A stretch of 64,000 nt of DNA from assembly GCA_963664015.2 (NCBI GenBank), contig CAXXLF010000002.1, positions 192,001 through 256,000 of the forward strand, read 5' to 3'. Under the pieces are notes generated by a model that was given only the letters and a program-made list of their open reading frames with translations, made no database searches and was not told where the DNA came from. A program made the position numbers and the translations under genes. This document shows positions 2,802-51,629 of the stretch, one piece after another. Source of the stretch: Candidatus Binatia bacterium. Its GTDB lineage: Bacteria; Desulfobacterota; Binatia; UBA9968; CAXXLF01. The number at the start of each line of letters is the position of its first letter. Position 1 is the first letter of the stretch.

Positions 2802-3564
2802 TTAAGACGTCCAAACGCCCTTTGGGTCATATTTTCTCACGGCGGCGATCTCATCCATCGAAGGCGGAGTGGTTTCTTGAATCTCATCTGCAGGTTTTAG
2901 GGTCCAGGCCGTTTCGCGTTGGATCTCCTGAACCGTGCCACCAAGGTGATCGGAGCTCAGAACCATTTCACGGCTCGTGGAATCAAATGAAAAGATTCCT
3001 AGGCTCGTAATGACGCGACTGGGTCCTCCACCTCTAAGACCCTGCTTTTGTCGCCAATCATAACCGCTACCGTATCCTGGTGAGGTCATAAAGTGGACCT
3101 TAGGGGAAAACCGACGTCTCTCATGATTCATGATAATAATGCATCGGCCCGCCAGGGCCGCGATGTCTGCGGCCCCACCACTCCTGGGAAGCCGAGTTCG
3201 CTTCATTCGGTCTGCGACCCAGTGGGTGTTCAGGTTGCCCAACTGATCCACCTCGGCTCCACCGATAAATCCCAATTCGACTCGTCCGCTCTGAAGCAGA
3301 CCCATCACATCCAACAGGCCGCCGCAGGAGAGGGAACGGGCCACGTTGGGAGGATCGCTCATGGTGAAGATGGGGGTCCAGGGCGGGCCAATCCCGGATC
3401 ACCCCGTTTTCAAAGATTCCTATCGTCGTAGGGACGTGAAGTTCCTTTGCGACAACGAACCCAAGCAGAGGCAGCCGCATGCCGACAAAGGCCTTTTCCC
3501 CGTCGTGGATCTCACGAGCGGCGGCCACAACCATCAATTCTCTACGCGTATAATCCATCGTCAA
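2802..3564 (-). pseudogene. CoA-transferase beta subunit (glutaconate CoA-transferase B-like), frameshifted
   Basis: N-half in ORF 3121..3564 (AAREIHDGE..FVGMRLP..FENG); C-half in ORF 2802..3362 (GFIGGAEVDQLGNLN, RLP[R]SGGA). +1 shift in a C-run near 3375; conserved LPGSGG reads LPRSGG. Confidence 0.8.
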
Positions 3565-4471
3565 AGGCCGAAATTAACGGGTAGCGGGAGTAGTTCGGCC
3601 CGTGGCTTGAGGTTAGCCACCCGTTTTTGACCCAGTCGTTGAAGAAACTCCGAATGATCCCTAATGCCGAGCACCCAGTTATCCAGCCAACGCAAAGATT
3701 CGTCCATGCTTCGGGATTGCTTGTGGTAATCAAAGAAAAAATAGTCATCCCGACCAACGTAATCTTGCGTGGGCGAGGCATGGGAAGCAAAGGGTTCATG
3801 AACAACCCTGGATACGACAAATCCGGGGATGACCGTACGGTTGGGATCCGTAAGGATCTCTTCGTGAGTTACGATCTCCTCACAGGTCAGGATCACCCTT
3901 CGGGCCGCCATTGCCGCTTCCTGCACAACTCCTAGATTGCCCCAGAGATGGGCGTTACGCTCGGGGTCGCCCTCTGGACATGAAGAATGGCAACATCGGG
4001 AACAATGGACCGAACGACCAAAAGCTCCTCACCGGTATACGGACAACGGAGCGGTTTAAACTGGGTGTCGTGGCTAAAAGCGCTTTCCCGGATCGTCTGA
4101 GTTGGCAGGAAAGGTAATCCAATCGCTGCAGCCTTGAGACCCACGCGCAAGGTAAAATTTGAATGTTCCTCAATTTCCAATGGGCCGGGTATTTTTTCCT
4201 CCATGGCCCGTGTAAAGTTATGCCCCAAGCCTGCCGCCACATTTCCAACCCAGGCTGTGAGGACCTTTTTCGCACATCCGGCCCCTATGAGTTGATCAAA
4301 CTGAATATCGGAAATTGGGGCGATCAGCGTCAGGTTCCTTTTATTCTGCCTAACGATTTCATGACTAGCCGCGAATGGGATCAGAGATTCAAGCCCACAG
4401 CCCATAGCGACCGACATGCCATCCACAATTTCTTCGCCAATTGCCTCCTGCATTGAGCAGAGTTTCTCCAT
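3561..4471 (-). pseudogene. CoA-transferase alpha subunit (glutaconate CoA-transferase A-like), frameshifted
   Basis: ORF 3932..4471 (GLPFLP, PDVAILHVQRA) continues in another frame near 3970 as DPERNAHLWGNLGVVQEAAMAARRVILTCEEIV (ORF 3561..3926). Confidence 0.8.
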
Positions 4472-39192: not shown

Positions 39193-41394
39193 CTAACCCA
39201 TGCGACCGAGTTCGAGTTTATCTCCCCAACGATGTTTCAGCACCTCTCTTAAACCCCTGGATGCTTGACTTCGCAAAGAGGGATCGCGGGAAAGCCAATC
39301 CAGGGCTTCCCGTCGTGCTGCCATGAGGAGCTTGGCGTCTCGTGCAATATCGGCTAGCCGAAAGTCCGGTAGACCCGATTGCCGGGTACCCAGAACCTCG
39401 CCGGGTCCTCTAAGCTGCAGATCGATTTCCGAAATCTTGAATCCGTCCTGTAGTTTTTCTATGGCACGAAGTCTTTTCGCGGCTTCGGGACTCTGCCCCC
39501 CGTATTGCACGAGCAGGCACTGGGAGGGATCCTTGCCCCTTCCAACTCGACCCCGCAATTGATGCAATTGAGACAAACCGAATCGCTCGGCATGCTCCAC
39601 GACCATCACCGTAGCCTTAGGAACATCGATGCCGACTTCAATGACCGTGGTCGCCACCAGGATTTGAAGTTTACCTTCCTTGAAACGCCGCATGACCTCG
39701 TCCCGCTCCTCCGCTGCCATCCTTCCGTGTACCAACCCAACCTGGAACTCCTTGAACACGACCCGTGAAAACTCCTCGGCCATTCCAGTAGCGTCCTTTA
39801 ACGGAAGGCGCTCGGAACTCTCTACCAATGGATAAACAATATAGGCCTGGCGTCCCTGGCGGACTTCCGAGCGCACAATCTGGTAAACGGAAGATCGTTC
39901 CCCCTCTCGAAATAGCCTGGTTCGGATCGGGGTCCGGCCCGGAGGCATCTCGTCAAGGGCCGACACTTCGATATCTCCGTAAAGAACCATCGCGAGGCTT
40001 CTGGGAATGGGCGTGGCCGTCATGAGCAGGATATCGGGGGGAGGAAGCGATGGGGTCGTGGTCCTTCTCCAACTTGAGAGCCGTTTAAGGGCGACCCGTT
40101 GGGCCACACCAAAACGGTGCTGCTCATCGATGATTCCCAGCCCCATTCGGGGAATAGACACTCCCTCTTGGATCAGCGCATGGGTCCCAACGACAAAGGA
40201 TATCTCACCACGAGAGATGCGGTCGAGGGTTTCCCTTTTTTGCTGGGCCGGCAAAGAACCGACGAGTAGGACGCACGTAACTTTCAACTTATCGGCAAAA
40301 CCTTTGAGATTGTGGAAGTGCTGGGCGGCTAGAAGCTCTGTTGGAGCCATGAGGGCTGCCTGAAAACCGTTTTCAATGGCCCTTAGTGCGGCAAACCAGG
40401 CGACGATGGTCTTACCCGATCCGACGTCTCCCTGCACCAACCGGAGCATGGGGTGCGGGGCCTCCATGTCGCTACCGATCTCCTTCAAGACCCGTTGCTG
40501 TGCCCCAGTCAAGCGGAAAGGAGTCAAGGCAAGCATCGTCCTGATCAATGGGCCCGTTGATCTTGAAAAGGAGAGTCCTTTTTCTGCCGTTCGTCGCTTT
40601 CTCTGCAACTCCATTCCCAACTGCAGGTAAAAAAACTCGTCAAAGATAATGGAACGATGGGCCTGTGAACGGAAGTCGTTTAAGGCCAATAAGTCGGAGC
40701 CCGTATCGGGGTGGTGGATCTCGGTGAGGGCCTGTTTCAAATCCGTTATGCGTTGACGGGTGGTAATCTCTTTGGGTAAATAACTCGGAAGAAAATCGCA
40801 ATAGGCACTTAACGCCTGGGGAACCCATTGTCGGAGCATTCCCATGGGGATCCCGCCCGGTCGCAAGTAGACTGGAAGAATCCGCTCCCTCGCGTCCTGA
40901 TCCCCCAACTCGACGGCCTCGAATTCGGGATGGGCGATTCTTAACTCCTTCCCTTTGCCACGGTCGACCTTCCCGTGCACCATGAAGTCCTGGCCGAGCT
41001 TCAGGCGGTTTACAATGTAGGGCTTGGGATAGAACCATATGAGCCCGAGTTCTCCAGTACCGTCATCCAACCGTGCCGTAAGGATCTGGCGCCTTCCCTT
41101 CTGAACCGTTTTTTTTTCCAGATCCACCAGGGTGCCGATAAAAGACTCCTCGTGCCCCATGACGGCGTCGCGAATCTTTTTAGTTTTACGGCGGTCTTCA
41201 TAGCGAAAGGGAAGATGATAGAGAAGGTCCTCTACAGTGCCGAGGCCCAAGCCTTCCAGGACTAAAGCTCGGGTCGGTCCGACGCCTTTTATAAATCGAA
41301 TGGAGGTCTGCAGTGAATGCCAGCACTCACGGGGATGATAGGAACAGCCCAGGTAAGGATGTTGCTCGCGGGGGGTAGTATCCAACGAACTCAT
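39193..41394 (-). CDS. recG: ATP-dependent DNA helicase RecG
   Basis: [50 protein letters not shown]. Confidence 0.97.
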
Positions 41395-44300
41395 GCAAGC
41401 TTATTTCGAACCCTATTGTGGGCCATACCCAGGTAGTCCTGCAGCGCTTGAACTTCCAGCCCATGGGATCGCAGTAGACTGATTCCTTCAATCGCCGCAC
41501 CCGCACCCGACATGGTTGTGAAATAGGGCACCATAAAGTCCAAGGCACTCCGACGAATATAATAGGAATCCGCTTGGGAGTGCGTATCGGTGGGGGTATT
41601 GATGACCATCGCCACTTCGCCGCGCTGTATGGCATCGGCGATATGGGGACTTCCCTCCTGAATCTTATTAACCACATCGGAAGGTATTTTCTGCTGGTGA
41701 AAACTCGCCGCCGTACCCTTGCTAGCGATGAGTTGAAACCCCATGTCGTAGAGCTTCCTGGCAATGGCGGTCGCCTTCTCCTTGTGCTCGTCGCGGACGC
41801 TGATAAACACCTTTCCTTCCAGAGGCAAGCGCATGCCGCTGCCCAGTTGGGCTTTCGCAAAGGCCCGTCCAAATGATGTATCGATCCCCATAACTTCACC
41901 GGTTGACTTCATTTCGGGCCCGAGAAGGGTATCCACGCCGGGAAATTTATTGAAGGGGAAAACCGCCTCTTTAACGGAAATGTGTGCTGGAAAGACCTCC
42001 TCGGTCACACCCAGTTCCCTCAGGCTTTTTCCACCTATAATTCTTGCAGCCAACTTGGCCAACGGCAGACCGACGGCTTTGCTGACGAAGGGAACCGTAC
42101 GAGAAGCCCGGGGATTAACCTCCAAGATAAGGACCTCGCGATCTTTGACCGCAAATTGGACGTTCATCAGTCCCTTCACCTTGAGGGCCCGGGCGAGAGC
42201 CCGGGTCTGGCGTCGGATCTCCTCTTGGATCAAACCATCAATCGAGTAGGGGGGCAGAGCGCAGGCACTATCACCCGAGTGAATTCCGGCTCTCTCTATA
42301 TGTTCCATGATCCCGCCGATGATGACTCGCTCCCCGTCACAGAGGGCATCGACGTCCACTTCCACAGCGTCATCGAGAAACTTGTCGATCAGGACCGGAT
42401 GCTCCGGTGACGCCGCCACCGCGTTTAACACGTAAAGCCTCAGATCATCCTGGTCGTAAACGATATCCATGGCCCGACCCCCGAGGACATAGGAGGGGCG
42501 CACCAGGACTGGGTATCCAATCTGGTTAGCAATCTCCAAAGCCTGCTCATACGAACGGGCGGTTCCGCTCACCGGTTGTTTCAGACCGAGGCGGTTGAGG
42601 AGATCTCTAAATCTGTCCCGATTCTCAGCGAGGTCGATACTGTCTGGCGACGTCCCGATCAACTGTACTCCGGCCTTTTCCAGGGCGAGGGCCAATCTCA
42701 GCGGCGTTTGACCGCCGAACTGGACGATGACGCCGTCGGGTCGTTCCACGTCCGTAATATTCAGGACGTCTTCAAGTGTCAGCGGTTCGAAGTAGAGCTT
42801 GTCTGAAGTGTCGTAGTCGGTGCTAACGGTTTCGGGATTGCAGTTCACCATGATAGTTTCGTAACCGTCTTCCTTTAGTGCAAAGGCAGCGTGTACGCAG
42901 CAGTAGTCGAATTCGATGCCCTGGCCAATCCGATTCGGCCCCCCTCCCAAGATCATAATTTTCTTACGACTGGTTCGATTGGACTCGTCCTCTCCTTCAT
43001 AGCTGGAGTACAGGTAAGGGGTATAGGCGGCAAATTCAGCGGCGCAGGTATCGACTGTCTTGAACCCGGCGCGGATCCCCTTCTCTATCCTAACGGCACG
43101 GACCTCATCCTCGTGCCGGCCCATGAGGAAAGCCATCCGGCGGTCGGAAAAACCCATCTCCTTGGCACGGAGAAGCAATTTGTAGGTGACGGCCCCCCAC
43201 TCTTTCCCGGCACGGCGAAGCTCCTCTTCCATGGTTACAATCTGCCGGATGTGCTCCAGAAACCAGGGATCGATCTTGGCTAGTTCATGGACCTCTTCCA
43301 CAGACATTCCCATTCGGAAGGCATCGGCCAGAAACCACAACCGCTGGGCATTTGGGGTGGTCAATTTTTCGCGTATCAGGGCCTGGTTGTGTTGATCCTT
43401 ACCGGGTTCGCGGTTTACCTTCTCCTCGAAACCATAATTTCCTATCTCCAAGGAACGGATAGCCTTGTGTAGGGATTCCTTGAAAGTGCGCCCGATGGCC
43501 ATAGCCTCACCCACGGATTTCATCTGCGTGGTGAGGATATCCCTGGCCTGGGGAAACTTCTCAAAGGTAAAACGCGGTATTTTTACCACGACGTAATCAA
43601 TGGTCGGTTCAAAGCATGCGGGCGTTTCCCGCGTGATATCATTTGGGATTTCGTCCAGGGTGTAACCCACTGCTAGCTTGGCCGCTATTTTGGCAATAGG
43701 GAACCCAGTTGCCTTGCTGGCGAGGGCCGAACTGCGGGACACTCGCGGGTTCATCTCAATGACAACCAAACGTCCGTCTCCCGGATGCACGGCAAACTGG
43801 ACATTGGAGCCTCCCGTATCCACGCCGATCTCACGGATGATTTTTAATGTTGCGTCACGCATCAACTGGTACTCTTTATCCGTAAGGGTTTGAGCCGGGG
43901 CTACAGTGATAGAGTCCCCCGTATGGACTCCCATGGGATCAAAGTTTTCGATGGTGCATACGATGACGACGTTGTCCTTGTGGTCTCGCATCACCTCCAG
44001 TTCGAACTCTTTCCAACCCAAAACCGATTCTTCGACGAGAAGCTCGTGGACGGGAGAAAGCTTCAAGCCCGAGGAAACTAGCTCGCTGAAATCCTCCGGT
44101 CCGTAGGCAATGCTTCCACCGCTCCCCCCCAGGGTACGTGAGGGGCGGAGAATCACCGGGAATCCGAGCTCCCGTTGAATTGCCTCCGCTTCCTTAACGC
44201 TGTGCGCGCATCCGCTTAGCGGTACATTCAGACCTGCTTTTTGAATGGCATTTTTAAACAGGGCCCGGTCTTCCGCCTTCTTGATGGATTCCAACTTGGC

Positions 44301-44651
44301 CCCGATCATCTCGACGCCATATCGCTCCAGGATCCCATTGTCGGCCAGATCGATAGCGAGGTTTAGAGCCGTTTGCCCTCCGATGGTCGGCAGCAGGGCG
44401 TCAGGGCGTTCCTTACTTATGATCTTCTCGGCCATGTCCAGGGTGATGGGCTCAATGTAGGTTCGATCGGCAAAGTCCGGGTCGGTCATGATTGTTGCAG
44501 GATTGGAGTTGATCAGGATTACACGGTACCCCTCTTCTTTGAGTGCTTTGAGGGCCTGGGTACCGGAATAATCAAATTCGCAGGCCTGTCCGATGACAAT
44601 CGGCCCGGATCCTATAACAAGGATAGTTTTTATATCTGTTCGCTTGGGCAT
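41391..44651 (-). CDS. carB: Carbamoyl-phosphate synthase large subunit
   Basis: [26 protein letters not shown], two ATP-grasp halves, MGS domain. Confidence 0.99.
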
Positions 44652-44751: not shown

Positions 44752-45876
44752 TTACTGTTCTAAAGGTTTCCCTTTCATTAACTCCAGGAACCTACGAAAG
44801 AGATAGCTTGCGTCATGGGGACCAGGAGAGGACTCAGGGTGATACTGGACTGAAAATATGGGTAGATCCTTGTGAGCCAATCCCTCCACCGTGCAGTCAT
44901 TTAAGTTGACATGGGTAACCATGGCTGTCCCTTCCAACGAATGGGCATCCAAAGCAAATCCGTGGTTCTGTACGGTAATCTCTACTTTCCGGGTTGTAAG
45001 ATCCATGACCGGTTGATTGCCGCCATGATGGCCGAATTTGAGCTTAAAGGTCGTGCCCCCTAGGGCCAGGCCGAGTATCTGGTGGCCCAAACAAATACCG
45101 AAAATGGGTTTCTTGCCGATGAGCTTACCCACAATCTCTCTTGCATAGGGTACCGCATCGGGATCACCGGGACCGTTGGAGAGGAAGATGCCGTCGGGAT
45201 TCCACCCAAGGACTTCCTCCGCCGGTGTCGATGCCGGGACCACATTGACCCGACACCCCGACTCGACAAGATTCCTGAGAATCGTGCTTTTGATTCCGTA
45301 GTCATAGGCAACCACAAAGAAATCCGAACGTTGTGCGTAGGGGTACCCCTTGCCTAACTCCCAGGTCCCATTTTCCCAGACGTAGGGCGACTGACAGGTC
45401 ACTTCCCGAACCAGATCCCTTCCCACGAGGCCGGGAGAGGCCTTGGCCATAGCAACGAGTTCTTCCGAACTGCGATCGAGTGTCGAGATGATCCCCTCCT
45501 GGGCACCATGATCTCGAATATGTCGGACCAGTGAGCGAGTATCGATTTCTTCAATGCCCACAATCCCGTGCTCACCCATATACTCATGCAACGGTCGGGC
45601 GGATCTCCAGCTACTGGGGATAGGGCAGTACTCCTTAACGATAAATCCGCCCATAAAGGGTTTCCGAGACTCGACGTCTTCTAAATTGACACCCACATTA
45701 CCGATCTCCGGACAGGTCATGGCCACCATCTGTCCCTGGTAGGAAGGGTCCGTGAGTATCTCCTGGTAGCCGGTCATGCTCGTATTGAAGACGACCTCAC
45801 CTCGTGCCTCCCCCTCACCGCCAAAAGACCGCCCCGTATAGGTCCGCCCATCAGCCAATGCCAGCATCGCCTTCAT
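44752..45876 (-). CDS. carA: Carbamoyl-phosphate synthase small subunit
   Basis: [35 protein letters not shown]. Confidence 0.98.
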
Positions 45877-47831
45877 CTGACAACGTTATCCTTACCGGGC
45901 TTCGTTGGATTGATGAGCGAATAGATAACCACTTTGTCCCGTTCCCCCTTTTCGACCTCCCGGAGTTTAACTCGAACCCTTTCCCGTTGCGAACTGGGAA
46001 TATTCTTGCCGATGTAGTTAGGCTTGACCGGAACCTCTCGATGGCCCCGATCAATCAAGACGGCCAGACGTACCGATTCTGGGCGGCCGGATTTGAAAAC
46101 TATACTGAGCGCTCTCTTCACGGTTCTGCCCGTATGGATCACGTCATCGACAAGCACGACGGAGCGACCCTGGAGGTTAATTGGCGCACCGTCGGAATCC
46201 ATTATGGAAGGCCCCGATGGTTCCTCGCCCGTGGCACTATAGACCTCAACCTCCCCCATTTCGATATTTCGCCCCTCACGCTCCTCCATCCGTGCGGCAA
46301 CCCGCTTGGCAATGTATACTCCCTTGGTGCGTATGCCGAGCACAAGTAGACGGTTCAAGTCCTTTGTCTCGCTCTGGATTTCCTCGGTCATTTTATCGAT
46401 AGCTGCCTGGATTTCACTTTCGTCCATAACGCTACGTTGAGGTCCGCTCTTATAGGGTTCATACCCCAGCTCTTCGGCCTGTTTGATGGAGTCGAATACG
46501 GAAAGCTCGCCGAGCCCGATCCAACTACGCGCGGTTTCCTCGAGCATGAGGTCGTAGGAACAATACCGTTTGGATTTGGAATGGCCGATGAGACGAATCT
46601 TGAGTTGATGATCACAATAGAGGCAGCGAAGGAACAGACCGCTTACCGGACTCGTAAAGAGGATCTCGAATCCAGCCTGCGTGGAGCCGGGCTCGTTGTG
46701 AGTCACACAATTGGCGTTGGTACATCGAGGGCCCGATGGTTCCGGGCTCTGGTAAAGAGCAAGCTTAACTGCCGGCCTCTTTGACTTCCCTGCGCCGAAC
46801 CGGTCCAGTAGGAATTTGATTAGCGCCATGCGAACCGGAACCCCATAGGCGGCTTGCTTGAAATAAATCCCCCGCGGGTCCTTATCGACCTCCGGGGCAA
46901 GCTCGTCCACCCGTGGCAATGGATGCATCACCAGCGTTTCCTTGAAGCCCTTGGCCTTGAGGAACCTCTCGTCAATTCTGGGGTAGTCGGATTGGCCTTC
47001 CGTTGTCTCCTGGGACCCCCGCTCCTTCTGTTGCCTCGTGACGTAGAAGGCATCCAACTTGCGCCCCGTTGCCATCTGGTTCAAACGGTTATGGATCTCC
47101 GTGTTGGCTTGGGTAAATAACGCTAGTTGATGGGGTTGACTGGGAGAAAGGTACACGGCATCTGTCGAGGTGACTACGGTTTTGAGATCGTCCGATATGA
47201 CAGGGATTGGACTATAGTGAAATTGGGTGTCCAGCCTTTCAATCACGTACTGAGGGATCTCCATCCCCGGGGCTGCCAGAATGATGACATGGGCGCCGAA
47301 TCGGGCCAGCGCGTAAACCAGCGAATGAATGGTTCGCCCGTGCTTCATATCTCCGCAGATGACCACTGTCAGACCGTTAAGTTTCCCCTTTTCTTTTCTA
47401 AGGGTATAGAGATCGCAGAGGGTTTGAGTGGGATGCTCATGGCTCCCGTCGCCGGCATTGATTATCGGGACATCGGCATGTTCCGCCATGGCTTTCACGG
47501 CGCCATCCCAATAATGCCGGATCACAAGGAGATCCGCATAACTGGACACTACCTTGGCCGTATCCGCTATGCTTTCTCCTTTAGTCGCTGACGAAGACTT
47601 CATATCGGGACAGCTGATAACGGCGCCGCCCAAGCGGTGCATGGCTGACTCGAAGGAAAGTCGAGTCCGGGTGCTGGGTTCATAGAAAAGCGTGGCCATG
47701 ATCTTTCCCATCTCCATGGTGTGTGCCACCCGCCCGGAATCGGTCGGGTTCATCTCGTCAGCCAGGGAAAAAATTTCTTCAATTTCCTGGTTGGAAAGAT
47801 CGGCAATGGTTATGAGATCCCGTCGGTCCAT
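45873..47831 (-). CDS. pyrB: Aspartate carbamoyltransferase fused to a PyrI zinc domain and a C-terminal PyrR-like phosphoribosyltransferase domain
   Basis: [32 protein letters not shown] (PyrB); CTNANC...CLYC (PyrI Zn domain); [30 protein letters not shown] (PyrR-like). Confidence 0.92.
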
Positions 47832-47840
47832 TGAACTCCT

Positions 47841-48413
47841 CTAAGATTGACTCGGTGGCCGCACCTTCCGGGGCTGGTCCCCTCCCACGACAACCCGGTC
47901 GATTCCGTCCGCTTCGCGAAACAACACATTGACCCGTTGGCCCTCCGAAACGCGGACATTCTTCCCTACGATGTCTGCCTTAATGGGCAACTCCCTGTCC
48001 CCACGGTCAACCAGAACCGCGACGAGAATTTTTATCGGATTTCCCATTTGAGTGATCAGATCGAGCGCTACCCGGGTGGTCCGCCCCGTGTAGATCACAT
48101 CGTCTACTAGAAAAACGACCCGGTCATCTAGGGAAAACGGAAACGAAATAGGGGATTGGAGCCCCGTACCCACGTCTCTTGCCAGGTCGTCCCGGAATGA
48201 CGTCACATCCATACTTTCCACGGCAATTACGCTAGAATTTAAGGCTTCTATCCGTTGCGCGATCCGCTTCACCAGATAGCCGCCTCGGGTTTCGATACCC
48301 ACGACGGCGAAGTTCTGCCCTTTCTCAATCTGCTCGAGGATCTCATGGGCCATGCGGGTGATCGCCCGCTCCATATCCTCACCCTCTAAAAGGATCTCTT
48401 CTTGGTTTTCCAT
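47841..48413 (-). CDS. pyrR: Pyrimidine operon regulator / uracil phosphoribosyltransferase PyrR
   Basis: RAITRMAHEILE, VGIETRG, SFRDDL, LVDDVIYTGRT, DRGDRELPIKADIVG; probable ATG at 48413. Confidence 0.9.
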   Translation of the reverse strand: MENQEEILLEGEDMERAITRMAHEILEQIEKGQNFAVVGIETRGGYLVKRIAQRIEALNSSVIAVESMDVTSFRDDLARDVGTGLQSPISFPFSLDDRVVFLVDDVIYTGRTTRVALDLITQMGNPIKILVAVLVDRGDRELPIKADIVGKNVRVSEGQRVNVLFREADGIDRVVVGGDQPRKVRPPSQS

Positions 48414-48426
48414 AAATATACTAGGC

Positions 48427-48460
48427 AAAAAAAGACCCCAACGGGATTACCGCCAGGGTC
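48427..48460 (-). terminator. Intrinsic terminator (attenuator) in the pyr leader
   Basis: Minus strand GACCCTGGCGG-TAATC-CCGTTGGGGTC followed by 7 T, just upstream of pyrR. Confidence 0.8.
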
Positions 48461-48515
48461 ATTTTGAAGACAAGGTGAATGAATATTATAGAATTTATAC
48501 TTATGAATCATCGTA

Positions 48516-48550
48516 TCCCTTCCCAACCTCACTGGATTGGTTTTAAAGGA
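48516..48550 (-). promoter_or_regulatory. PyrR-binding loop RNA element
   Basis: Minus strand CCUUUAAAACCAAUCCAGUGAGGUUGGGAAGG contains CUUUAA and the ARUCCNGNGAGGYU consensus. Confidence 0.85.
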
Positions 48551-48558
48551 CCATCATT

Positions 48559-48699: not shown

Positions 48700-49794
48700 A
48701 TGAACTTAATGAAAGGATTGGGAGCAATCCTGAGCATTGCCTTTTTGACGGTTACGCTTGGTTTTACTCCAACCATCACAGAAGCTGCTTCATTACGTGA
48801 TCAAATGATCGCCAAGGCCAAGTAAGGAAGGCCAGTTCGTCGTGGCTGGCAACAACGCCCACAACTTCCGCGACGAGTTCAAAGGGTTTAAGAGGAAATA
48901 CCCGTTTATCACCGTTAAAGCCTTAACGGCCGACACCGGCGACACCATTAACCGGAGCTCCGCCGAAGCAAAGGCAGATAAGCTTAGCCTTGATTTGCCC
49001 GCTATCAGCAGCGACGGCTTGGAATTACTCGCCAAGGCTATCTTCGTAGACAAGATGGAGTTTCCGCGCCTGAAGGACTTTGCAGAGGGGACCAAACCGC
49101 GTAGTGGAATCTATGTGCAAGCTTTTTTTAACTCAAGGGTACAAGGCCTCTACAATACAAAGATAATCAAACCAAGTGAAGCACCCAAGTCCTGGGAAGA
49201 CATGGTGGATCCCAAATGGACCGGGAAGACCATGCTTTCTCGCTCTTCCGAGGACCTTCCTGCACAGCTGACCTATCTTTGGGCCAAGGGTGGGAAGCTG
49301 AACTGGGAGCGTGCCTTCGACCTGTTCAGAAAGTTGTAGTCCCATAATCCTGTTATTGGACGCGGGTACAGCGGCGGTGCGCAGAGGGTTGCCGCAGGCG
49401 AGGTGCCATCTTCTGGTTTTGCCCTGCTACTCTTCCTGCACTGTTAAACCTGGAAAAAGGGGCTCCTGTAAGCCTCATCGCGTTGACCAAGTACTTCGGC
49501 GGCCTGCGATCTTGGAGCGTATTTAAGGATGCTCCCCATCCGGTTTCGGCCTGGCTGTTGATGGCATACATCACTTCCCCCCAGGGGCAATTTGAATTTA
49601 CCGACAAGGTGGCCGGCTTTATCCCGCTGAACCGGAAGGCCAAAACGGGCGCGTTGGCGCAATGGATGGTTGATCGTGGCGGCAAGGTCGAGAATATGGA
49701 CTTGATAGATCTGAGTAACTTGAAGGAGATTTATTCTGACGAGATCCAGAAAAAACAGGAGGGGTTCTTCTTCAAGCTTTTGGGCCTCAGGTAA
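48700..49794 (+). pseudogene. Fe(III)/polyamine-type ABC substrate-binding protein, disrupted
   Basis: Signal peptide MNLMKGLGAILSIAFL..., AKAK then stop/frameshift near 48823, APKSWEDMVDPKWTGK, TAG at 49337, APHPVSAWLLMAYITSPQGQ. Confidence 0.8.
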
Positions 49795-49869
49795 CGACTT
49801 TTTTACCCCTGTCATTCGGAAGTGGGGTGGGCCGTGTAAGCTAAAAACTTGCTGAAGGCCAATTGGAGA

Positions 49870-51629
49870 ATGGAAGCTACTGTTAATATACAGGCCTTCC
49901 GCGCCATGCGGTGGCTCGGTCTCGATGGCAAGCGCCTTGTTTTCTGGAGCTTGACCCTAATCTTAGGTGTCTTCGTCTTGGTTCCCCTGAGCCTTTTGGT
50001 CTTGAACAGCCTGGGCATGTAGGTATAGGGGAACTGGGTTTTGGCCTGAGCAATTTCAACCTCGGCAACTACATCGAAGCCTACTCCAATCCGTCGACCT
50101 TCAAAATGCTCCTGAACTCGTTCCTGTTTGCTTTTGGATCGATAGGGGTCCCGTCTTCTTCGGGGGGACTTTGGCATTTTTGTCCGAGCGTACTAATTTT
50201 CGCTGGCGTGCGCTCATCCCCTTATTGGTCATGGTCCCCCTCATCATGCCTTCCGTGGTGAAGGGAACCGCCTGGATTTTTCTTCTCTCGCCCAGGATCG
50301 GCTTGCTCAACATGGCCGGGATGTCCCTGGGCTTCGAGTCACCCTTGTTCAGCGCCTACTCCCTACCCGCCATGATCTGGGTGGAAGGGATCAGCATGAG
50401 CACCCTCGCCTTTCTTTTGGTTGGGGCCACTCTACGGCAGATGGATCCGTCCTTGGAAGAGGCTGGCTTCGGAAGTGGAGCGTCGTCAGGGACGGTGTTG
50501 ACTCGGGTGACCCTCCCCCTGATGGCACCCGGGCTTGCAGGCGTAGCGACTCTGCTGTTTATCCGAGGGCTCGAGACCTTTGAAGGGCCTATGTTATTGA
50601 GGTTCAGCAATGGTATATTTGTGTTCAGCACCAACATTTACTACTCCCTGCGTACCTCCCTCCCTCCCAACTATGGGCTGGGGTTTGCCTACAGCATGAC
50701 GTTGGTGGTGATGACTCTGGGGGCGCTTATCATTTACCAAAGCAGTTCAAGCGTTCCGAGCAGTACACGGTCGTTACGGGAAAAGGGTACCGCCCTCGGA
50801 CCATCGGCCTGGGCTCATGGCGCTATCAGGCCTGGGGCTTTGTGGGATTTTACCTGATATTCGCTATCTTGTTACCGCTCTTTATTTTGATCTGGGGATC
50901 CTTGCTGCCTTATTATAAACCGCCTTCTGCAGTGGGCCTATCTCTAGTGAGTTTGGAAAACTACAGGGAACTCTTCGAATCTGAAAGCCTAGTGCCTGTG
51001 ATCATGAACACAATCATCTTGGGTGGGGTGAGCAGCGTTACCATCATGTTTCTTTCGGTACTGTCATCGTGGTTCATTTACCGGACTGACATTCGCGGCC
51101 GCAAGGTGCTCGATTTTATAGTGTTTCTGCCCTATGCGGTCTCCAGGCTTGCCGTAGGGGTGGCCTTTATGATCGTTTCCCTCTCCTTTCCCAACCCGAT
51201 CATAATACCATCTGGATAATTGTACTGGCGTAAATCGTAAACTATCTACCCATCGGTACACGATTTACCAATGCGGCCATCGTACAGGTCCATAAGGAGT
51301 TGGAAGAGGCGGCCATGGCCAGCGGGGCCGGTTTTTTGACCAGGGTACTGCGAATTTGGATGCCTTTGTTGCCCCCCGCCTTGATCAACGGTTTTCTTTT
51401 TGTCTTTATTCTGAGTTTTAAGATTATGTCCATCGCCACTCTGCTCCAGAGCTCTGACAATATGGTGTTGGCGGTGTTTTTATGGCGTCTTTGGGACACC
51501 GGAGATTCGGGCCAGGCCGCAGCGCTAGCGGTACTGATGATCGTTGTTTTGGGCACCTTGACGTCATTAGCCCGCTATTTCACCCGTAGCACTTCCGCTT
51601 TCAAAGAGATCTCAGACGAATCGGGTTGA
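49870..51629 (+). pseudogene. Fe(III)-type ABC permease (two-repeat), disrupted
   Basis: ERTN, MDPSLEEAG, GKGYRP, ELEEAAMASGA fragments in different frames. Confidence 0.8.

Follow-up and report, generated by a model that had tools for sequence, protein, structure and literature searches.

A fusion of PyrB, the PyrI zinc domain and a PyrR-like domain in Candidatus Binatia: a possibly new regulatory architecture of aspartate carbamoyltransferase

Allosteric regulation has its classic model in aspartate carbamoyltransferase (ATCase). Here we analyse an ATCase gene in a 64,000-nucleotide stretch of DNA, called the window below, from a Candidatus Binatia bacterium (GenBank assembly GCA_963664015.2, contig CAXXLF010000002.1, positions 192,001 to 256,000). 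The gene occupies 45873..47831 (-) and encodes one uninterrupted protein of 652 amino acids (aa) plus stop, as a preliminary description made from the letters alone had proposed. Its parts follow in the order ATCase catalytic chain, zinc domain of the regulatory chain PyrI, linker element and phosphoribosyltransferase (PRTase) domain of the PyrR fold, so that the enzyme, the adaptor and the fold are each known and their regulatory combination is new. We suggest that the PyrR-derived domain senses nucleotides for the ATCase in place of the PyrI allosteric domain, while the free PyrR, encoded next to the fusion, attenuates the operon via its leader RNA; we give this reading somewhat better than an even chance.

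The layout of the fusion is drawn from the open reading frame (ORF), Pfam, NCBIfam and an alignment (A2) of 94 full-length relatives; residues called invariant are identical in 94/94 of these. Pfam finds OTCace_N (PF02729) at residues 4-145 with 175 bits, OTCace (PF00185) split over two stretches with 80 bits, PyrI_C (PF02748) at 369-412 with 26.9 bits (cut-off 23.4) and Pribosyltran at 473-615 with 88 bits. Conservation by region, taken as the mean top-residue frequency in the 94-sequence family, is 0.83-0.84 in the catalytic parts, 0.78 in an insertion within them, 0.74 in the zinc domain, 0.79 in the linker and 0.78 in the PyrR-like domain, and 0.54 in the tether at 346-369 and 0.46 in the C-terminal tail. 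By this measure constraint on the linker and on the PRTase domain seems roughly equal to that on the enzyme part.

Residues 1-345 (46797..47831 (-)) form an ATCase catalytic chain of the PyrI-partnered (HPLPR) type, as seen from TIGR00670, the nearest structures and the invariant columns. TIGR00670 (asp_carb_tr) scores 301.2 bits against a cut-off of 236.95, and NF002032 295.6 bits against 263. The invariant residues include S53-T54-R55-T56-R57, S81, K84, R105, H133, Q136, R166, R266, Q268 and H303-P304-L305-P306-R307 (HPLPR); the ATCase active site, in E. coli numbering, we take to be STRTR, K84, R105, H134, Q137, R167, R229, Q231 and HPLPR. Judged by these residues, the catalytic half has full ATCase competence and belongs to the subfamily normally paired with PyrI, and the full catalytic chain noted earlier is indeed there. 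Its nearest solved chains are those of P. abyssi (1ML4, 262 bits), M. jannaschii (2RGW, 256 bits) and E. coli (~211 bits), with plant PYRB and CAD also near, whereas the unregulated B. subtilis chain 2AT2 reaches 131 bits and the dihydroorotase (DHOase)-bound Aquifex chain 3D6N 102 bits. With the full-length model as query, the top rows listed by Foldseek are all ATCase catalytic chains, which agrees with the sequence ranking and is uninformative on domain packing.

A family-specific insertion precedes the YVTRxQ motif of the Asp domain (residues ~202-257, 47061..47228 (-)) and is seen as an alignment gap against 1ML4: query residues 4-201 correspond to 6-203 and 258-342 to 221-305, which leaves ~39 extra residues. 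The preliminary description had recognized this insertion and put its length somewhat too low, at about 35 aa. Its core reads ...QPHQLALFT..., and much of it is at least 90% conserved in A2; it is modelled with low confidence. The ordinary pyrB of a relative of the same class has no such insertion.

The genome to which the window belongs (3.51 Mb, 2 contigs, 97.3% complete) contains PyrI_C (PF02748) once, in the fusion ORF. The N-terminal allosteric domain of PyrI (PF01948) is found neither in the ORF nor in a six-frame search of this whole, 97.3%-complete genome, and the same search obtained a match in T. maritima as a positive control; the observation that only the C-terminal zinc domain of PyrI is present can be upheld. 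OTCace_N occurs twice, in the fusion ORF and in an open frame of 309 aa, located on the other contig and taken to be an ornithine carbamoyltransferase (OTCase). The fusion is the organism's sole aspartate carbamoyltransferase. PyrR is present in two copies, one free and one fused, and pyrC is located on the other contig, away from the cluster.

The catalytic chain is connected to the zinc domain by a variable tether (residues 346-369, 46725..46796 (-)) of low conservation and low predicted local distance difference test (pLDDT) values, below 50 at 349-356. The zinc domain itself (residues 370-412, 46596..46724 (-)) is recognized by PF02748, by a profile and by its fold, and its ligands C370, C375, C403 and C406 are invariant. 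The profile (A3, residues 358-466 from 15 genomes) retrieves ATCase regulatory chains from the PDB with E ~5e-6; in the example of 1D09_B it covers residues 107-150, superposes the two Cys pairs and stops three residues short of the C-terminus of the E. coli chain, which has 153 residues. The AlphaFold2 model of residues 358-466 has a mean pLDDT of 77.7. With this model Foldseek gives PyrI chains as the best hits (42 columns, root-mean-square deviation (rmsd) ~2.0, probability 0.97-0.99), at E values of only 0.06-0.5, and a fold search independent of Foldseek likewise ranks PyrI chains at the top (Z 5.5 for 2BE7_D and 4.8 for 2YWW_B, over model residues 1-55). Of the two Asn residues aligned to N111 and N113 of the E. 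coli regulatory chain, N372 is invariant and N374 is at least 90% conserved. We note that the zinc-ribbon part was also matched in 10 repeated stretches of a large 2097-aa protein of secreted type with a Por_Secre_tail domain (P0262), which is unrelated to ATCase; the ribbon motif recurs elsewhere.

Residues 413-466 (46434..46595 (-)) had been put down simply as a linker. In the models they are a conserved folded alpha/beta element and not a spacer: strands 414-417 and 422-425, helix 428-439, strand 443-446 and helix 449-454 are followed by a G-P-Q-R hinge, pLDDT is ~76-89 both in the full-length model and in that of the zinc-plus-linker segment, and W437, F446, A452, P459, Y460 and R466 are invariant. 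The element is without a sequence family, having no Pfam match even at E<=10. An ESM Atlas search gave no usable match. The structural resemblance of the element to the N-terminal domain of Ada is weak (1U8B_A, Z 4.4, 46 aligned residues, rmsd 2.5; 1EYF_A, Z 4.3, 50 aligned residues, rmsd 2.8, model residues 55-109), and a Z below 8 may reflect a common arrangement. An Ada-type zinc domain (PF02805) was considered and rejected, as there is neither a sequence match nor a conserved Cys set in 413-466; the six-frame search of the window's genome gives nothing for PF02805.

The PyrR-fold type I PRTase domain spans residues 467-637 (45921..46433 (-)). The PyrR equivalog model NF003549 scores 159.5 bits at 465-636 (cut-off 138), and the domain aligns over its entire extent, residues 467-637, with B. 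subtilis PyrR (1A3C) at ~140 bits, as it does with 4P80 and 4P82. In the loop that binds 5-phosphoribosyl 1-pyrophosphate (PRPP), D562, D563, V564, G568 and T570 are invariant. We compared the 94 fused domains with 92 free PyrRs from the fetched loci, using 1A3C numbering. D105, D106, T110, G111, T113, D137, R138, H140, R141 and K152 are common to both sets. In the fused set D105, D106, G111, T113 and R141 are kept in 94/94 sequences, R138 and H140 in 93/94 and K152 in 90/94; R595, H597, R598 and K609 are the corresponding residues kept in the fusion.

The two sets part at helix 1, where R15, T18, R19, H22 and R27 are taken as the conserved basic residues of the PyrR RNA-binding face. Position R15 is Arg in 89/92 free PyrRs and S (29), E (28), A (13) or D (4) in the fused domains, with no Arg among the four commonest residues. 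Position T18 holds T (57) or S (10) in the free set and R (25), E (21), Q (17) or H (11) in the fused one; R19 is Arg in 89/92 and turns to E (38), Q (26), R (9) or K (8); H22, which is H (69) or Y (17) when free, becomes E (34) or R (34); and R27, R (45) or K (30) in free PyrRs, is D (54) or E (37) when fused, i.e. acidic in 91/94. Outside the helix D148 (90/92 free) is replaced by N (88/94 fused). The net charge of the helix-1 segment is -2.05 in the fused domains and +1.52 in the free proteins. The fused copy of the window has A, D, K and E at positions R15, T18, R19 and H22, whereas its free PyrR retains all four residues; the difference between AIDKMTEE in the former and AITRMAHE in the latter had been pointed out before, and it extends to the whole family. 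The flexible YRDD loop, present in the consensus of the 92 free PyrRs and retained as FRDD in the free PyrR of the window, is replaced in the 94 fused domains (consensus ...EIYG.GD...). The domain, described earlier as a complete PyrR-like one, is thus not fully PyrR-like. Its PRPP loop is intact, as that description had stated. Two divergent long-form proteins, P0257 and P0275 (653 and 658 aa, 46% and 44% identical overall), keep an FRDD/YRDD-type loop and have already lost T18, R19 and H22. Judged from this pair, the comparison suggests that the RNA-face residues were lost before the flexible loop.

The fused domain had been taken for a duplicated PyrR, i.e. a copy of the gene next door, and the trees speak against this. 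All fused domains fall into one clade (94/94) with no free PyrR within it (FastTree 0.857; IQ-TREE approximate likelihood-ratio test 89.9). Of the free sequences, the co-resident ones lie among the farthest from the fused clade, with patristic distances of 2.39 and 1.92 against a median of 1.48, and the fused and free PyrR of the window's genome are 36% identical. A recent duplication of the neighbouring pyrR is not supported and is rejected on the trees. The free PyrRs nearest to the fused clade, by patristic distance only, carry Chloroflexi and actinomycete labels.

Since the PyrI allosteric domain is not found, the nucleotide loop is kept and the helix-1 residues are lost, we regard a sensor role as the best reading of the PyrR-derived domain. 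In the mechanism that we propose, the zinc domain would dock on the catalytic chain as in E. coli-type holoenzymes, as the conserved Asn residues aligned to N111 and N113 suggest. The alpha/beta element of the linker would carry the PRTase domain beyond the zinc domain. With its RNA-binding face gone and its 5-phosphoribosyl/nucleotide pocket kept, the PRTase domain would act as an effector-binding (allosteric) domain for uridine nucleotides, possibly also for PRPP or guanine nucleotides, all known ligands of PyrR. PMC7430163 describes a basic concave surface as involved in RNA binding by PyrR, which binds uridine mono- or triphosphate (UMP/UTP) for this, and an antagonistic effect of guanosine monophosphate (GMP) binding. 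Occupancy of the pocket would be passed through the linker and the zinc domain to the catalytic trimer. The PRTase domain probably pairs with a partner domain as PyrR proteins do, bridging two trimers. Free PyrR would separately attenuate transcription of the operon through the leader RNA, so that two diverged PyrR-family proteins would control the pyrimidine supply at two levels. A fuller version, to which we assign rather less than an even chance, is a holoenzyme of two trimers bridged by PyrR-derived dimers on the zinc adaptor, with its activity set by uridine versus guanine nucleotides or PRPP and with control of both transcript and enzyme. A complex prediction for two copies of the zinc-linker-PyrR module (alignment A1) gave a median score of 0.38 against a mark of 0.42, with controls at 0.00, and speaks neither for nor against pairing.

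Several points weigh against a sensor role, which is proposed here from sequence and models. In PyrI the allosteric domain is N-terminal to the zinc domain, whereas in the fusion the PRTase domain is C-terminal to it; hence the signal path cannot simply have been inherited from PyrI. The earlier suggestion that a PyrR sensor has replaced the PyrI allosteric domain can be kept in so far as that domain is not found and the nucleotide loop is retained, but the exchange is not like for like, with the new domain at the C-terminal side and an extra ~50 aa. Short relatives, described below, consist of PyrB, zinc domain and linker without a PRTase domain, so that the zinc domain and linker have a function with no need of PyrR. 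The PRTase domain could have been added later, in a different role. Taken as a whole, the fused domain is more basic than the free proteins (mean net charge +2.9 versus -3.0), so that helix 1 is the only place where the charges support a loss of nucleic-acid binding. Savacool and Switzer (2002) reportedly found T18, R19, H22, R27, R141 and R146 to matter for RNA binding by PyrR. P0257 and P0275 keep the FRDD/YRDD loop, which makes catalytic competence possible in part of the family. Finally, the last 59 residues (594-652, the end of the PRTase domain and the tail) are modelled at pLDDT below 35.

The PRTase domain may alternatively be an active uracil phosphoribosyltransferase (UPRTase), in which case the fusion would be a bifunctional enzyme joining salvage to the first committed step of de novo synthesis, with or without on-site inhibition by UMP. 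An intact and invariant PRPP loop, a score above the cut-off of the PyrR/UPRTase equivalog NF003549 and the loop retained in the divergent long forms are in line with this, as is the role of PyrR as one of the two UPRTases of B. subtilis (PMC7430163). However, the main fused family has another sequence in place of the YRDD motif, the neighbouring free PyrR keeps FRDD and could supply the UPRTase activity, and a salvage enzyme would need neither a zinc adaptor nor a conserved linker between it and ATCase. No dedicated upp gene (PF14681) is found in the window's genome, but a full-length upp (202-213 bits) occurs in only 20/301 genomes sampled from the class, all of one fusion-less genus, and the other fusion-less families are also without it. 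Most of the class lacks upp, fusion-bearing or not, so its lack does not discriminate between the readings. We consider a bifunctional enzyme unlikely.

The PyrR-like domain could also be an assembly module only, which dimerizes and ties two trimers into a hexamer for stability or cooperativity and senses no ligand. PyrR structures comprise dimers, tetramers and hexamers (1A3C, 1NON, 1UFR, 4P80-4P86). Regulatory dimers bridge trimers in E. coli-type ATCase (PMC4581275). The pocket residues are nevertheless invariant or nearly so in the 94 sequences, which argues that ligand binding is under selection, and the short forms manage without the PRTase domain. A purely structural role appears improbable to us.

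Cross-talk with the free protein is the alternative offered in the preliminary description. The stand-alone pyrR lies at 47841..48428 (-) as a 195-aa ORF from a TTG (NF003549, 178 bits; alignment to PyrR structures), although translation more likely starts at an ATG five codons further in. The fusion ORF starts 9 nucleotides after this pyrR. We note that this free PyrR has D at H140 (H in 86/92 free PyrRs), Q at R27 and the longest branch among the free PyrRs. Directly upstream of pyrR, a PyrR-binding leader RNA (RF00515) with a terminator hairpin and a U run is found at 48426..48553 (-); it scores 51.9 bits, below the gathering score of 54, with E 5e-5, and no second site of this kind is found in the genome. 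Its hairpin loop is AAUCCAGUGAGGUU, close to the PyrR recognition sequence ARUCCAGAGAGGYU given in PMC7430163. The element is also present in 7/13 related loci, 12 of the 13 having been fetched from five families and one (L018) added; the eight leader sequences share the binding hairpin, followed by the terminator hairpin with a U run, and show a compensatory change in 9/23 predicted pairs. In the six loci of f6, the family with most fusion genomes, no PyrR leader is found at E<=0.1.

The fused domain might mix with oligomers of free PyrR or bind the leader RNA, and the amount or state of ATCase would feed back on attenuation of its own operon. The presence of a free pyrR directly upstream in 13/13 loci, the leaders just described and the fold common to both proteins favour this. 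On the other hand, a conventional pyrB directly downstream of pyrR is found in 4/5 fusion-less genomes of the class, so that this adjacency is no special mark of the fusion. The 36% identity of the fused and co-resident free PyrR and their distance in the tree, the unconserved helix-1 residues of the fused domain and the f6 loci with no detected leader also count against it, and we rate cross-talk a poor candidate.

That an error of sequencing or assembly joined two or three neighbouring genes, a possibility to which only the ATP-binding cassette (ABC)-transporter operon broken into several frames (pseudogenes or indel errors) 1-4 kb upstream lends some colour, is excluded with a negligible residue of doubt, because the relatives carry the same single frame: 111/120 of the best listed homologues of the C-terminal half measure 629-673 aa, the module recurs in 94/301 genomes of the class and in 13/13 fetched loci, and the apparent short forms in the databases begin inside conserved motifs or sit on 1-3 kb contigs, i.e. 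are truncations. With residues 345-652 as query, 529 matches at E<=0.001 are obtained among proteins of similar total length, and in other genomes, single-contig ones included, the module lies within open frames of ~640 aa or more. The expectation that relatives have a fusion and not separate ORFs is borne out. A stand-alone zinc-PyrR regulatory chain was sought among the shorter proteins and rejected: the best of these lie on ~1-3 kb contigs or begin inside the HPLPR motif or the zinc domain. We read such shorter entries as truncated or frameshifted calls rather than a separate subunit.

The fusion is concentrated in a part of its class. With the zinc-plus-linker segment as query, 94/301 sampled genomes of the class match, nearly all in open frames of ~640 aa or more; three of these are flagged as unpublished (G282, G408, G403), without which the count is 91/298. 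The matches fall into five families, f1 (3/3 genomes), f86 (21/25), f89 (1/1), f6 (49/49) and f91 (19/19), and the fifteen other families of the sample have 0. One of the latter, f87, belongs to the same order as the window's genome and has the module in 0/21 genomes; its member G224 (single contig, 99% complete) contains no ATCase at the TIGR00670 cut-off, the best frame, at 145.7 bits, probably being an OTCase. With the whole C-terminal module as query, 168/201 genomes of the phylum match; among the matches listed, the zinc and linker part is covered only in the window's own genome (G000) and in the class relative G174, where it is cut at a contig end. A phmmer search of 1.84 billion public cluster representatives yields only 45 with the zinc-plus-linker segment at E<=0.001, in two architectures, a long one of PyrB, PyrI_C and PRTase (653-658 aa) and a short one of PyrB and PyrI_C (476 and 482 aa). 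The long-form proteins bear the names Candidatus Binatia, 'Deltaproteobacteria' and, for one representative, Candidatus Acidoferrales.

In the fusion-less genomes of the class, PyrI_C is present in 0/5 checked. The fusion occupies the slot of the ordinary pyrB (HPGP...NRG type) but its catalytic half belongs to another subfamily, with 32% identity to the pyrB of a fusion-less class genome. Hence the whole fusion gene appears, from these comparisons, to have displaced the ordinary pyrB.

The short form was met at a Dehalococcoidia-labelled locus (L079) as a 460-aa protein downstream of a normal pyrR, and in 8/301 sampled genomes of the phylum of this locus, always in open frames of 470-502 aa. 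The short forms share the insertion region, the zinc domain and the linker element and are without the PRTase domain. A scan of named genomes, in which one of the two patterns was a generic PRTase motif and ordinary PyrR genes dominated the matches, is informative only for L018 and L079. At 3111-4118 (+) of L079, just upstream of pyrR, there are two ORFs of 151 and 164 aa that look transposase- or integrase-like by eye.

We compared the fusion with the known ways of building an ATCase. According to PMC4581275, the known prokaryotic forms are not many and comprise bare trimers, PyrI-regulated dodecamers with separate or fused chains, and DHOase-associated dodecamers. With the E. coli-type (class B) PyrB6-PyrI6 enzyme the fusion shares the catalytic subfamily (HPLPR) and a four-Cys zinc domain that aligns with PyrI 107-150 and has the same zinc fold. 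Unlike in that enzyme, the zinc domain is fused to the catalytic C-terminus, no PyrI N-terminal domain is found in the window's genome, the putative effector domain follows the zinc domain and has the PRTase fold instead of the PyrI N-domain fold, and an Asp-domain insertion of ~39 aa and a linker element of ~50 aa are added. In T. maritima a fused PyrB-PyrI is reported to form an allosteric enzyme (Chen et al. 1998, cited in PMC4581275). Like the window's protein, it has catalytic and regulatory functions on one polypeptide, but it carries a complete PyrI including the allosteric domain, for which the PF01948 control match stands. The model of this fused type, NF009916 (PRK13376), reaches 91.1 bits on the window's fusion, far from its cut-off of 800, and covers residues 45-202 only.

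The PyrR proteins 1A3C (B. subtilis) and 1NON (B. caldolyticus) have the same fold and family by hidden Markov model, and the PRPP loop and R138, H140, R141 and K152 are kept. They differ in that the fused copy is a domain of an enzyme and not a free protein, R15, T18, R19, H22 and R27 are unconserved or acidic, and YRDD is lost. The short forms (460-502 aa, from Dehalococcoidia-labelled and other uncultured genomes) resemble the fusion in the insertion, the zinc domain, the W...F...A...G..P core of the linker and, in L079, the pyrR upstream; they end right after the linker element. Among DHOase-associated ATCases, PMC4581275 names Pseudomonas with an inactive DHOase and the Aquifex ATCase-DHOase dodecamer. 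There, too, a protein of the pyrimidine pathway has been recruited as a non-catalytic partner of the holoenzyme, but on a separate chain and with another ATCase subfamily, whereas the fusion uses a PyrR paralogue via the PyrI zinc domain.

The architecture had been called possibly new, and this still holds: we found no description of a PyrB-zinc-PyrR fusion in the literature searched, most subscription journals being outside its coverage, and NCBIfam release 20 contains no model for the PyrB-zinc-linker-PyrR architecture. The fusion has a bearing on annotation as well: in public records the long forms carry the generic ATCase name 'aspartate carbamoyltransferase (catalytic subunit)' and the fragments the name 'pyrimidine operon attenuation protein'. 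The family would add a fourth ATCase solution, in which the PyrI zinc adaptor is kept and the effector domain comes from the pathway's own RNA-binding regulator. If our suggestion is true, it is a natural experiment on the exchange of an allosteric domain upon a fixed adaptor, a PyrR paralogue gave up RNA binding for enzyme control, and the short forms, with zinc domain and linker and no sensor, are a plausible intermediate. Should the bridged-dimer holoenzyme be true as well, it would plainly exemplify the exaptation of an RNA-binding attenuator fold to an allosteric role.

Downstream of the fusion the cluster continues with carA at 44752..45876 (-) (Pfam CPSase_sm_chain and GATase) and ends with carB at 41391..44651 (-), assigned from its ORF and synteny. 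The carA ATG overlaps the stop of the fusion by four bases (45873-45876 (-)), so that the two genes are likely co-transcribed and ATCase is possibly coupled in translation to carbamoyl-phosphate synthetase. The order free pyrR, fusion, (pyrC), carA and carB on one strand is found in 13/13 loci. In 9/13 of them (L114-L122, of f6, f91 and f89) fusion and carA are separated by ~1.1-1.4 kb; the gap in L114, the only one checked, contains a 455-aa dihydroorotase-like gene.

Two other features of the window were recorded. The ABC-transporter operon at 48842-51629 (+) is broken into at least five ORFs, which points to pseudogenes or to indel errors of the assembly: the solute-binding protein (SBP_bac_8) is split into 48842-49336 and 49483-49791, and the permease (BPD_transp_1) into 50171-50854 and 51300-51626 with an unassigned ORF between. 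At 40233-40496 (+) Rfam gives the Yersinia small RNA Ysr141 at 32.8 bits, where the gathering score is 196; the match is most likely due to chance.

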